From a virus (Duplodnaviria > Heunggongvirae > Uroviricota > Caudoviricetes): a DNA stretch of 23,390 bases. How positions within the stretch are numbered: the first letter of the stretch is position 1; every line of letters begins with the position of its first letter. Under the pieces are notes generated by a model. It made no database searches. It was not told the origin of the DNA and saw nothing but the letters and a program-made list of their open reading frames with translations. The position numbers were made by a program, and so were the translations under genes. Where the stretch lies: positions 1-23,390 of the IMG/VR virus record IMGVR_UViG_2537561977_000031. One strand, written 5' to 3'. Below are positions 16,790 to 17,061 of this stretch, one piece after another.

Positions 16790-16819
16790 TTGACAAAAAC
16801 ACATATCCGGGGCTATATT
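16790..16819 (+). promoter_or_regulatory. Candidate sigma70 promoter (TTGACA, ~18-nt spacer, TATATT), divergent from the higBA promoter
   Basis: Perfect -35 TTGACA at 16790-16795 and TATATT at 16814-16819. Confidence 0.4.
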
Positions 16820-16825
16820 CCCTGA

Positions 16826-16899
16826 ACGCCAGCAAATCTGGCGTCGGGATTGGCGTCCCGGATATCGAAACGGTGCATAACCGCGCTGGCGGTTTTTTT
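16826..16899 (+). ncRNA. Candidate small RNA or terminated leader/attenuator (~70-75 nt) ending in an intrinsic terminator
   Basis: Hairpin CGCCAG-CAAAT-CTGGCG (16829-16845), outer inverted repeat ATATCCGGG...CCCGGATAT, terminator hairpin AACCGC-GCTG-GCGGTT plus TTTTTTT at 16879-16899. Confidence 0.35.
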
Positions 16900-17061
16900 A
16901 TGCGCTAAGCACAGTCACATTCGCGATTTATGGTGGGCTGTGTGGGGGAGTTGAGAGACTCGCCGGATGTTTCGACCGGTTACGCCAACCCTGCACAGTT
17001 CACCACCCAGCGATTGGCGTCGCAGGTGGTGAGTTAAAAACCATCGAAACGCGAGGTCGTT

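Follow-up and report, generated by a model that had tools for sequence, protein, structure and literature searches.

The region upstream of the ORF6N antirepressor gene in this window (the whole stretch of DNA analysed, 23,390 nucleotides) is almost certainly an RNA control cassette of the P1 immI / Gifsy-1 isrK type. The best overall explanation, to which a probability of about 0.7 is given, is a self-contained cassette that gates translation of a prophage antirepressor, with the IsrK:C4 ratio as the switch. Family membership, anatomy, complementarity and three-way covariation are established at the present locus, while all function is inferred; C4 repression, trans activation by IsrK through a1-a' pairing, and processing have been demonstrated in the relatives P1/P7 and Gifsy-1. 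The locus adds one more ordinary example of a phage RNA cassette that has been described before.

The cassette begins with a sigma-70 promoter, P_isrK, on the plus strand (16790-16819), in which TTGACA starts at 16790 and an 18-nt spacer leads to TATATT ending at 16819. It was found by a consensus scan with matches at 11 of 12 positions, as expected from the near-consensus promoter of the original prediction, and the alignment revealed its conservation in homologous loci. The promoter was also correctly placed back-to-back with that of higBA (TTGCGA-16-TATAAT by the same scan, read from 16781 to 16754 on the minus strand), which faces higB and lies outside the cassette as context; HigB and HigA were identified by Pfam, and the higB start is at window position 16725 according to PGAP. 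The -10 hexamer of P_isrK ends 7 nt 5' of the start of an Rfam isrK match, and transcription is predicted to start at about A16826. This match (RF01394, plus strand, 16826-16899) covers the model end to end (1-77/77) with 68.3 bits versus a gathering score of 50 (E = 6.4e-13), Rfam membership requiring the covariance-model score to reach the curated gathering score across the full model length. Judged by its sequence, 16826-16899 is a member of the isrK sRNA family with its own predicted sigma-70 promoter and intrinsic terminator, and its predicted length of 74 nt agrees with the structured, terminated transcript of ~70-75 nt that had been anticipated.

The IsrK-like leader RNA consists of hairpin 1 (16826-16845), hairpin 2 (16846-16861), a single-stranded linker and the terminator, with compensatory changes among 17 loci supporting both hairpins. 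The terminator (16879-16899, plus strand; consensus scan and fold) comprises the hairpin AACCGC-GCTG-GCGGTT at 16879-16894, that is, a GC-rich 6-bp stem with a 4-nt loop, followed by T7 (U7 in the RNA). It had been called strong; it is present where predicted, but with a 6-bp stem and a predicted dG of -9.0 kcal/mol its strength is moderate. A hairpin with a T-run occupies the same position, between b1 and C4, in all 85 modules of this kind taken from IMG/VR. The consensus scan of 16900-17061 returned no promoter-like site on either strand, in keeping with the earlier remark that no separate promoter is obvious before the ORF6N gene; lacking a recognisable promoter of its own, the antirepressor gene would depend on read-through. 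The PGAP annotation between higB and ant contains no ncRNA and is blank throughout. Near P_isrK, neither a LexA-box-like site nor an exact copy of the resident OR operator (TATAAC-N3-GGTTAT, 9003-9077; resident CI at 8284-9021) was found. Action of the resident repressor at P_isrK was considered and rejected, the 2-mismatch site at 16803-16817 being within chance (0.85 expected per window) and sitting in a stretch conserved among phages of different immunity.

The 160-nt region between the terminator and the ORF6N gene had been read as a plain leader, but it contains a full-length C4 antisense RNA gene at 16926-17010 on the plus strand. Rfam RF01695 matches it from end to end (model 1-87/87; 68.7 bits versus a gathering score of 45, E = 1.1e-11), and by this match it is a bona fide C4 RNA gene, homologous to P1 c4. 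The predicted mature C4 is 76 nt long (16932-17007), as deduced by homology with the annotated ends of the 77-nt P1 c4; its processing context, AUUAU|GGUGGG ... CACCACC, is conserved and agrees with these P1 ends. By homology, C4 would be excised from a longer precursor, with RNase P acting at the 5' end. Folding gave -39.9 kcal/mol (z = -4.0) with identical minimum-energy and centroid structures, and the predicted architecture is a long closing stem around two hairpins that leaves the a' and b' segments single-stranded. Compensatory changes were found at 13 of 27 consensus pairs across 18 loci. Segment b' (GUUUCGA, 16969-16975, plus strand) forms the loop of internal hairpin 2, while a' (ACGCCAA, 16982-16988, plus strand) lies in an internal single-stranded segment, and the predicted costs of opening them in mature C4, 0.52 and 0.03 kcal/mol, respectively, mean that both are essentially unpaired.

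Located between the two sets of repeated motifs, C4 has loops complementary to each motif. The repetition in the same order proved real and non-random: the 23.4-kb window contains exactly two copies of GATTGGCGTC, at 16848 and 17012 (expected 0.08; at least two copies in 0 of 100 shuffles), and ATCGAAACG is found at 16864 and 17043 with a third copy at 17916 (expected 0.23; at least three copies in 0 of 100 shuffles). The third copy was dismissed as a further target of C4: no a box accompanies it, it lies inside a Rha pseudogene, and it is regarded as chance. The motifs are not self-regulatory repeats; by complementarity they are two copies of the C4 a'/b' binding sites, one set being a1/b1 and the other a2/b2. 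On the plus strand, box a1 (UUGGCGU, 16850-16856) lies in the loop of hairpin 2 and box b1 (UCGAAAC, 16865-16871) in the linker, whereas box a2 (UUGGCGU, 17014-17020) follows directly 3' of C4, at the position of the annotated P1 a2, and box b2 (UCGAAAC, 17044-17050) ends 2 nt 5' of the Shine-Dalgarno sequence GAGG (17053-17056, plus strand) and 11 nt 5' of the AUG. Each complementarity is perfect over 7 nt, a' pairing with TTGGCGT at both a sites and b' with UCGAAAC at both b sites. The c4-a1b1 model (RF03163) scored 45.3 bits over 16813-16864, just below its gathering score of 46.7.

A further conserved element, the GGUGGUGA box (17025-17032, plus strand), is complementary to UCACCACC at 17000-17007, the 3' strand of the C4 closing stem. 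This pairing constitutes an alternative helix with a2 in its loop, and it appears as an 8-bp helix in the 19-locus consensus. In the minimum-energy fold of 16826-17080, a1/b1 pair with a'/b' in cis and the C4 3' strand pairs with the GGUGGUGA box; for the leader folded on its own, partial sequestration of a2 and b2 is predicted, with an opening cost of 5.6-6.9 kcal/mol. Sequestration of the Shine-Dalgarno sequence through pairing of a2 with the b2/SD region was predicted in the window alone and was absent from the 19-locus consensus, and so was rejected as a conserved feature.

The gene under control (17062-17748, plus strand) encodes a 228-aa antirepressor with an ORF6N domain and a P22AR C-terminal domain by Pfam. 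The protein matches PHROG 377, 'anti-repressor Ant', at 9.6e-80, and its N-terminal domain (residues 1-123) is 65% identical to Gifsy-1 AnrP. Together with the isrK and C4 family matches, these assignments uphold the original prediction of a phage small-RNA element at an antirepressor gene. The cassette is closed by an intrinsic terminator with an 8-bp stem, a UUCG loop and a T-run (17766-17795, plus strand, consensus scan). Overlapping C4 is a 35-codon ORF (16930-17037, plus strand), the positional counterpart of Gifsy-1 orf45, which stops 24 nt 5' of the antirepressor ATG and 6 nt before b2, and whose AUG sits in the conserved AU|GG at which the 5' end of P1 c4 is cut. A conserved small protein encoded there was considered and dismissed: among 21 loci the ORF ranges from 14 aa up to an in-frame fusion with ant. 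In Gifsy-1, according to the IsrK authors, the nucleotide sequence of the counterpart ORF is conserved and its amino acid sequence is not (PMC4825925). The prophage carries IS1 and IS110 insertions and may be defective, in which case the switch may have no phenotype.

The two RNAs occur together well beyond this locus. Another 19 phage loci have C4 ~25 nt after isrK, and the C4 landmarks across phage loci were taken by alignment-column extraction. In all 21 loci of the set, a' is perfectly complementary to a2 over 7-8 nt and complementary to a1 over 6-8 nt (7-8 nt in 20 of them), and b' is complementary to b2 over 6-9 nt; the a box occurs in 11 sequence versions and b2 in 15. When partners were shuffled among loci, the observed complementarity was reached in 0 of 20,000 trials for each of a1, a2, b1 and b2. 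The same anatomy was found in 85 IMG/VR modules with 20 a types, 46 b types and 63 combinations of the two. Across the 21 phage loci and these 85 modules, a'/a1/a2 and b'/b1/b2 co-vary as triplets. The genes downstream of the IMG/VR modules encode Rha, ORF6N, Bro-N, AntA or 'Derepression' proteins; in most of the modules 8-12 nt separate the end of b2 from the start codon, and b2 is longer than b1 in 56 of the 85 and shorter in 2. Modules of this kind were detected in 2,366 of 5,426 complete E. coli genomes, with up to seven per genome, and Shiga-toxin phages such as VT2-Sakai are among the carriers. Two other modules are present in the source genome, and in the source strain, which has a second prophage at 3.57 Mb, two different lambdoid prophages carry an identical two-box code.

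Based on these features and on the relatives, the following sequence of events is proposed. Transcription would initiate at P_isrK at about 16826, and most transcripts would end at about 16899 as the 74-nt IsrK-like RNA, exposing a1 in a hairpin loop and b1 in the single-stranded linker. A minority of transcripts would read through and carry C4, which would be excised, by homology with P1 c4, through an RNase P cut between U16931 and G16932 as a ~76-nt RNA with a' and b' exposed. C4 would bind a2 and b2 of the same or a sister transcript and, with b2 abutting the SD, would block 30S binding at the ant start; as happens in P1, the untranslated message would probably also come under Rho-dependent polarity. 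Repression of ant by C4 through a2/b2 is probable, and in P1 full ant repression requires C4 (PMC8198154). The IsrK-like RNA, in which both boxes are present in the same order, would compete for C4 or remodel the long transcript, so that a high IsrK:C4 ratio would switch ant translation on and favour prophage derepression.

Since the a1/b1 boxes are identical to the mRNA target boxes, the short RNA would be a target mimic or activator rather than a repressor; a role as activator or decoy has about an even chance of being correct. In Gifsy-1, IsrK supplied in trans raises anrP translation 139-fold, G28/G31 pair with C162/C159, a' mutants are derepressed, and STnc1160 is processed out of the read-through transcript (PMC4825925); in our comparison, G28/G31 fall in a1 and C162/C159 in a'. 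Citron and Schuster, quoted in the supplement of PMC2864571, proposed that a1/b1 compete with a2/b2. Furthermore, knock-out of ant in the Stx phage Phi24B resulted in lower late-promoter activity after induction (PMC3064807). Mutations of a1 in cis lift basal anrP translation in Gifsy-1 from 4 to 93-218 units (PMC4825925), an effect that a pure decoy model does not predict and that suggests an additional repressive role of a1-a' pairing in cis; such cis pairing is also present in the predicted minimum-energy fold of the long transcript at the present locus. The translational-coupling step of Gifsy-1 is not conserved here; it belongs to the published mechanism and does not define the RNA family.

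The chief rival is a structural switch in the manner of Gifsy-1 that operates without a free C4 repressor. The read-through mRNA would be locked in cis by a1-a'/b1-b' pairing ('structure A') until invasion by the short RNA in trans releases the start of the small ORF; ribosomes translating this ORF would then expose the ribosome-binding site of ant. In its favour are the predicted minimum-energy fold of 16826-17080 with its cis pairs, the conserved GGUGGUGA box helix and the Gifsy-1 mutational data (PMC4825925), and a ribosome terminating at the ORF stop at 17037, 6 nt before b2, could unmask b2 and the SD. However, the ORF is unconserved, being 14 aa in P1, GER2 and PhiR12_2 and forming an in-frame fusion with ant in six loci, the AUGA stop/start overlap is confined to Gifsy-1 among the 21 loci, and the mature 5' end of P1 c4 cuts through the small-ORF AUG. 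A switch that needs a1-a' alone also leaves unexplained the C4 fold, with its 13 compensatory pairs, and the a2/b2 complementarity. This switch is considered unlikely, though it and the preferred C4-based cassette are not mutually exclusive. The control point could instead be transcriptional, an attenuator as had been suggested at the outset, with regulated read-through of the 16879-16899 terminator achieved either by an alternative structure or by C4 serving as a termination factor like P4 CI RNA on seqA/seqC. Read-through is indeed obligatory for an ant gene with no promoter-like site of its own, the P4 CI analogy was raised for STnc1160 by the IsrK authors, and a Gifsy-1 transcriptional fusion also rose 8-fold with IsrK in trans (PMC4825925). 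Yet no conserved antiterminator alternative emerged from single-sequence or alignment folds, in which the terminator region aligned poorly; the Gifsy-1 operon is basally transcribed but not translated (280 versus 4 units), and its translational effect of 139-fold far exceeds the transcriptional one. Attenuation as the main mechanism, which does not explain why nearly all modules have b2 at the ribosome-binding site, is considered improbable.

A function away from ant has also been weighed, in which the 74-nt RNA is mainly an Hfq-dependent trans-acting sRNA with host mRNA targets and its link to ant is incidental. isrK is listed in Rfam as an Hfq-binding RNA, and other short terminated prophage RNAs have host targets (PMC7547250), but a1/b1 co-vary with the adjacent C4 loops in every locus examined and the 63 a/b combinations preclude a common host target, which makes this reading very improbable. 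The EHEC anti-sRNA study (Tree et al. 2014, PMC4104026) makes no mention of isrK, C4 or antirepressors. Least credible of all, with hardly any probability left to it, is a cis-antisense RNA of the P22 sar type, transcribed from the opposite strand across the ant ribosome-binding site. The likeness to sar that had been drawn holds as a functional parallel, a small RNA keeping an antirepressor off (PMC12197685), and fails structurally: on the minus strand the consensus scan across 16900-17150, which includes the 5' end of ant, found no promoter-like site, the Rfam search found no structured RNA family, and the complementarities are in trans between same-strand elements.

Within the preferred reading of a C4-based cassette, a bolder and quite tentative proposal equates the isrK family with the c4-a1b1 motif. 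This single element would serve as an 'anti-antisense' mimic, terminated by design and made in excess, with a b box that consistently matches C4 slightly less well than the true target does; the frequency of read-through at one terminator would set the ratio of mimic to repressor, and the two-box code, with at least 63 combinations, would constitute an RNA-level immunity specificity. If so, the code would decide which co-resident prophages share antirepressor control, and the two lambdoid prophages of the source strain with identical code would be co-regulated. The present analysis precisely annotates a known cassette for which genome pipelines record nothing. Work on isrK and work on c4 have each covered one half of the same module; recognising this makes cross-talk testable, and so does the finding that the two-box specificity is highly diverse and can be common to co-resident prophages. 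Antirepressors under such modules influence prophage induction.

Several known systems share parts of this design. The CI RNA of satellite phage P4, with seqA/seqB/seqC, is likewise a small RNA processed from a leader with complementary boxes on both sides, according to the cited discussion, and IsrK is a structural homologue of P4 seqA RNA according to its authors (PMC4825925). P4 CI is described, in the cited discussion only, as causing premature transcription termination on replication genes, whereas box b2 here lies at the antirepressor ribosome-binding site. In P22 sar/ant, a small RNA likewise holds down antirepressor translation, and the C-terminal domain of the present Ant belongs to the P22 antirepressor family; sar is transcribed opposite to the ant leader, from a kind of promoter that is missing here. 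Closer still is the isrK-orf45(STnc1160)-anrP operon of Gifsy-1 in Salmonella (Hershko-Shalev et al. 2016, PMC4825925), with 75% nucleotide identity over 243 nt. Both loci share the isrK and C4 arrangement, the a box UUGGCGU, the promoter and the antirepressor N-terminal domain (65% identity), while the antirepressor C-terminal domain differs from that of AnrP and the b box is UCGAAAC here and AUCACCG in Gifsy-1. The small ORF of 35 aa stops 24 nt short of ant, whereas that of Gifsy-1 overlaps the anrP start as AUGA. The neighbours differ as well: Q (antQ) lies directly upstream in Gifsy-1, whereas here higBA is upstream and Q 1.6 kb downstream, and the isrJ that follows downstream in Gifsy-1 was not found here by the Rfam search.

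The P1/P7 immI leader (P51b/P1c4 - a1 b1 - c4 - a2 b2 - icd - ant1/2) has the same order of elements, so that the comparison with P1 c4 made at the outset was apt; the relation is one of homology rather than analogy, and the short RNA that carries a1/b1 is not the equivalent of c4. In P1, icd intervenes, whereas here the regulated gene follows directly after b2, and its Ant is of the ORF6N/P22AR_C type, not Ant1/2. P1 is a plasmid prophage and has Op51, while the present cassette lies in the nin region of a lambdoid prophage and no repressor operator was found at its promoter. Here the b1-C4 interval contains a terminator distinct enough for the leader to match the isrK model, whereas P1 has a weaker hairpin and T-run at that place and its leader matches only c4-a1b1 at the gathering threshold. 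Nonetheless, the spacing is nearly the same: start to start, a1 and b1 are 15 nt apart here and 14 nt in P1, a2 and b2 are 30 and 29 nt apart, and b2 ends 11 and 10 nt before the start codon, respectively. With P1/P7 the present locus shares a homologous C4 fold, pairing of a'/b' with both site sets, a2 directly 3' of C4, a first downstream gene with b2 at its ribosome-binding site, and an antirepressor as the end product. In P1/P7 heteroimmunity, the specificity is set by the loop sequences (PMC12197685).

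Judged by its sequence, the element between the promoter P_isrK and the antirepressor gene ant belongs to two RNA families, isrK and C4. An Rfam scan of the window gave two full-length above-threshold matches at this locus: isrK (RF01394) at 16826-16899, with 68.3 bits against a curated threshold of 50, and C4 antisense RNA (RF01695) at 16926-17010, with 68.7 bits against a curated threshold of 45. The c4-a1b1 target motif at 16813-16864 fell below threshold (45.3 against 46.7 bits). The short transcript of the original prediction is thus an IsrK homologue. The 160-nt stretch regarded as an unstructured leader was found to hold the C4 RNA gene. 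C4 is predicted to fold into the family shape, a long closing stem around two hairpins (-39.9 kcal/mol, z = -4.0), and an alignment of 18 homologues contains compensatory changes in 13 of 27 pairs. The mature RNA, predicted by transfer of the annotated P1 c4 mature ends, spans 16932-17007.

The anticipated promoter is present at 16790-16819 as TTGACA-18-TATATT, which agrees with the consensus at 11 of 12 positions, and the divergent higBA promoter (16781 to 16754) and the terminator at 16879-16899, with a 6-bp stem and T7, were likewise found. A scan between this terminator and the ORF6N gene found no promoter-like site, in agreement with what had been claimed. Neither an operator for the resident CI nor a LexA box was found at P_isrK, which is therefore probably constitutive. 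The P_isrK spacer contains ATATCCGGGGCTATA at 16803-16817, a stretch that is conserved in the P_isrK promoters of phages whose immunity regions differ. As a copy of an OR operator it was rejected: it has two mismatches to this prophage's operator, 0.85 such hits are expected per window, and the resemblance is probably due to chance.

The repeated motifs of the original prediction, GATTGGCGTC at 16848 and 17012 and ATCGAAACG at 16864 and 17043, were confirmed. Both are much commoner than in shuffled sequence, and for either motif none of 100 shuffles matched the observed count. By their complementarity they are the C4 target boxes. Segment a' of C4 (ACGCCAA, 16982-16988) is exactly complementary to TTGGCGT in a1 upstream of C4 (16850-16856) and in a2 downstream (17014-17020), as is b' (GTTTCGA, 16969-16975), in the loop of hairpin 2, to TCGAAAC in b1 (16865-16871) and b2 (17044-17050). 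Both segments are predicted to be nearly wholly unpaired in mature C4. Box a1 lies in the loop of IsrK hairpin 2, while b2 ends 2 nt 5' of a GAGG Shine-Dalgarno sequence and 11 nt 5' of the ATG at 17062. In the predicted minimum-energy fold of the long transcript, a1 pairs with a' in cis, and the 3' strand of the C4 closing stem (17000-17007) forms an 8-bp helix with a conserved GGUGGUGA box (17025-17032) located between a2 and b2, with a2 enclosed in the loop. This predicted helix could form instead of the C4 closing stem. It is conserved in each of the 19 aligned loci, with covariation in JLK-2012 and P1; no description of it was found in the literature cited here on C4 and IsrK. The inference originally drawn from raw sequence was a good one, though the finding itself is ordinary.

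The identity and anatomy of the cassette are shown directly, and its covariation by comparison with relatives. A 286-nt query region found relatives in 277 phage records, mostly Stx-converting phages, with Gifsy-1 being 75% identical. Rfam placed isrK and then C4 about 25 nt later in 19 of 19 fetched loci, and c4-a1b1 with C4 at the P1 locus. In these 21 loci the loops and boxes co-vary in sequence, with 11 different a sequences and 15 different b2 sequences. Without exception, a' is perfectly complementary to a2 over 7-8 nt and complementary to a1 over 6-8 nt, and b' is complementary to b2 over 6-9 nt. When partners were reassigned among the 19 non-redundant loci, none of 20,000 permutations reached the observed total, whether for a1, a2, b1 or b2. 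Pattern matching against IMG/VR yielded a further 104 unique hits, 85 of them with complete anatomy. Among these 85 modules, a1 complementarity extends over at least 6 nt in 84, a hairpin with a T-run separates b1 from C4 in all, and the length of b2 exceeds that of b1 in 56, equals it in 27 and falls short of it in 2. Box b2 usually ends 8-12 nt 5' of the start codon. They carry 20 a types and 46 b types in 63 combinations. The 77 scanned proteins encoded after them included Rha (30), ORF6N (15), Derepression-family (10), Bro-N (9) and AntA (2) members, all of which are antirepressor-type regulators. The code of the window joins a Gifsy-1/Sakai-type a box to a PhiR5_2/JLK-2012-type b box, a pairing unique among the 21 loci and seen once in the IMG/VR set (L096:7323). 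On some IMG/VR contigs, modules of isrK, C4 and a small gene stand in tandem, each copy with a different a/b combination (three copies with a 656-nt period on L060, two each on L041 and L096).

Published work on relatives agrees with this anatomy along three lines. In P1 and P7, full repression of ant needs C4, which pairs around the ribosome-binding site, and the C4 loops determine heteroimmunity (PMC8198154; PMC12197685). Competition of a1/b1 with a2/b2 for C4 was proposed by Citron and Schuster, as quoted by Weinberg et al., who also defined the two-hairpin a1b1 motif (PMC2864571). In Gifsy-1, the terminator lets a share of the isrK transcripts continue; the resulting long RNA is made without being translated (280 versus 4 units), translation of anrP, its antirepressor gene, rises 139-fold with IsrK in trans, a' mutants are strongly derepressed, and STnc1160 is a stable RNA processed from the read-through transcript (PMC4825925). 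The critical IsrK residues G28 and G31 fall in a1 and their partners C162 and C159 in a', in our own numbering of the Gifsy-1 sequence. From these relatives we infer that at the window locus read-through transcripts would yield C4, which would block the ant ribosome-binding site via a2/b2, and that abundant terminated IsrK-like RNA, carrying the mimic boxes, would counteract C4. Since a1 mutations in cis raise basal expression in Gifsy-1 (PMC4825925), a1-a' pairing within the long transcript must also add to silencing. The step of the Gifsy-1 model involving orf45, the ORF at the C4 position, was not portable: the window ORF, which begins at the conserved AUG, has 35 codons and ends 24 nt short of ant. 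Among the loci this ORF varies from 14 codons up to an in-frame fusion with ant, and the 5' end of mature P1 C4 cuts through the AUG.

The regulated ORF (17062-17748) combines an ORF6N domain with a P22AR C-terminal domain. Its PHROG match is 'anti-repressor Ant' (9.6e-80), and it shares 65% identity with Gifsy-1 AnrP over the first 123 residues; a strong terminator at 17766-17795 ends the unit. Knock-out of a related Stx-phage Ant with a P22-Ant-like C-terminal domain reduced post-induction late-promoter activity to about 30% (PMC3064807). Past the terminator lie a truncated gene of the Rha family (17817-18077, +) and another antirepressor gene, with ORF6N and KilAC domains (18074-18844, +); both lack a C4 module of their own. 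A third ATCGAAACG copy, at 17916 within the Rha remnant, has no a box close to it.

The window is a lambdoid prophage of E. coli FDAARGOS_944, and 15500-19500 is 100% identical to NZ_CP065613.1 4,355,273-4,359,271. The cassette is surrounded by NinB, NinE, minus-strand higBA, the ORF6N/P22AR_C gene, the Rha pseudogene, the second antirepressor, RusA, NinH, Q and two tRNAs; the genes for CI, Cro and CII are found at 8.3-9.8 kb. Because an IS110-family transposase gene (10291-11487, -) sits in the replication-gene region just past CII, and an IS1-family one (6469-6972, -) also lies inside, the prophage may be defective. PGAP annotates 12260-15165 (+) as a single 2.9-kb toprim-domain gene, where the six-frame list gives two overlapping ORFs (12260-13996 and 13933-15165); the former has a Toprim_2 match and possibly harbours an intein, given a weak match to homing-endonuclease Hint (E = 2.8e-5) that does not reach the Pfam cut-off. 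tRNA-Asn(GTT) and tRNA-Thr(TGT) are adjacent at 20269-20424 (+), 3' of Q, and occur in the same order in phage P1 (trnA, trnT) and in the source genome's second prophage. sRNA-Xcc1 matches at full length at 2121-2209 (-; 68.3 bits, gathering score 53) and also in phage GER2 (1538-1621), directly upstream of its antiterminator gene.

Of 5,426 complete E. coli genomes, 2,366 contain sequences related to the 236-nt module; a single genome has as many as seven, and the source genome has four. NZ_CP065613.1 carries another lambdoid prophage, of the P/ren type, at 3.57 Mb (3566523-3573758), which differs in replication genes and shares a 3.5-kb nin segment with window 15907-19389 at 99.5% identity. 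Within it the isrK-C4 leader is 100% identical and the Ant and HigB proteins are identical; therefore, both prophages should have one common RNA specificity and one Ant.

The cassette is unlike P22 sar, to which it had been likened, because the opposite strand has no promoter-like site in 16900-17150. With its boxes, the element is by sequence homologous to the immI leader of P1 and to the isrK locus of Gifsy-1. The P1 GenBank record annotates the same order of promoter, a1, b1, c4 (77 nt), a2, b2 and first gene, and the spacings in P1 and the window are 14 and 15 nt from a1 to b1 (start to start), 29 and 30 nt from a2 to b2, and 10 and 11 nt from the b2 end to the start codon. Unlike P1, the window cassette lies in a nin region, lacks icd and a repressor operator, and serves another antirepressor type; from Gifsy-1 it differs in b specificity, the uncoupled small ORF, the antirepressor C-terminal domain and the neighbours. 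The authors of the Gifsy-1 study compared IsrK with P4 seqA and STnc1160 with P4 CI (PMC4825925). A recent review still gives IsrK and c4 as unrelated entries (PMC12197685), but Rfam and the IsrK paper already imply the link between them.
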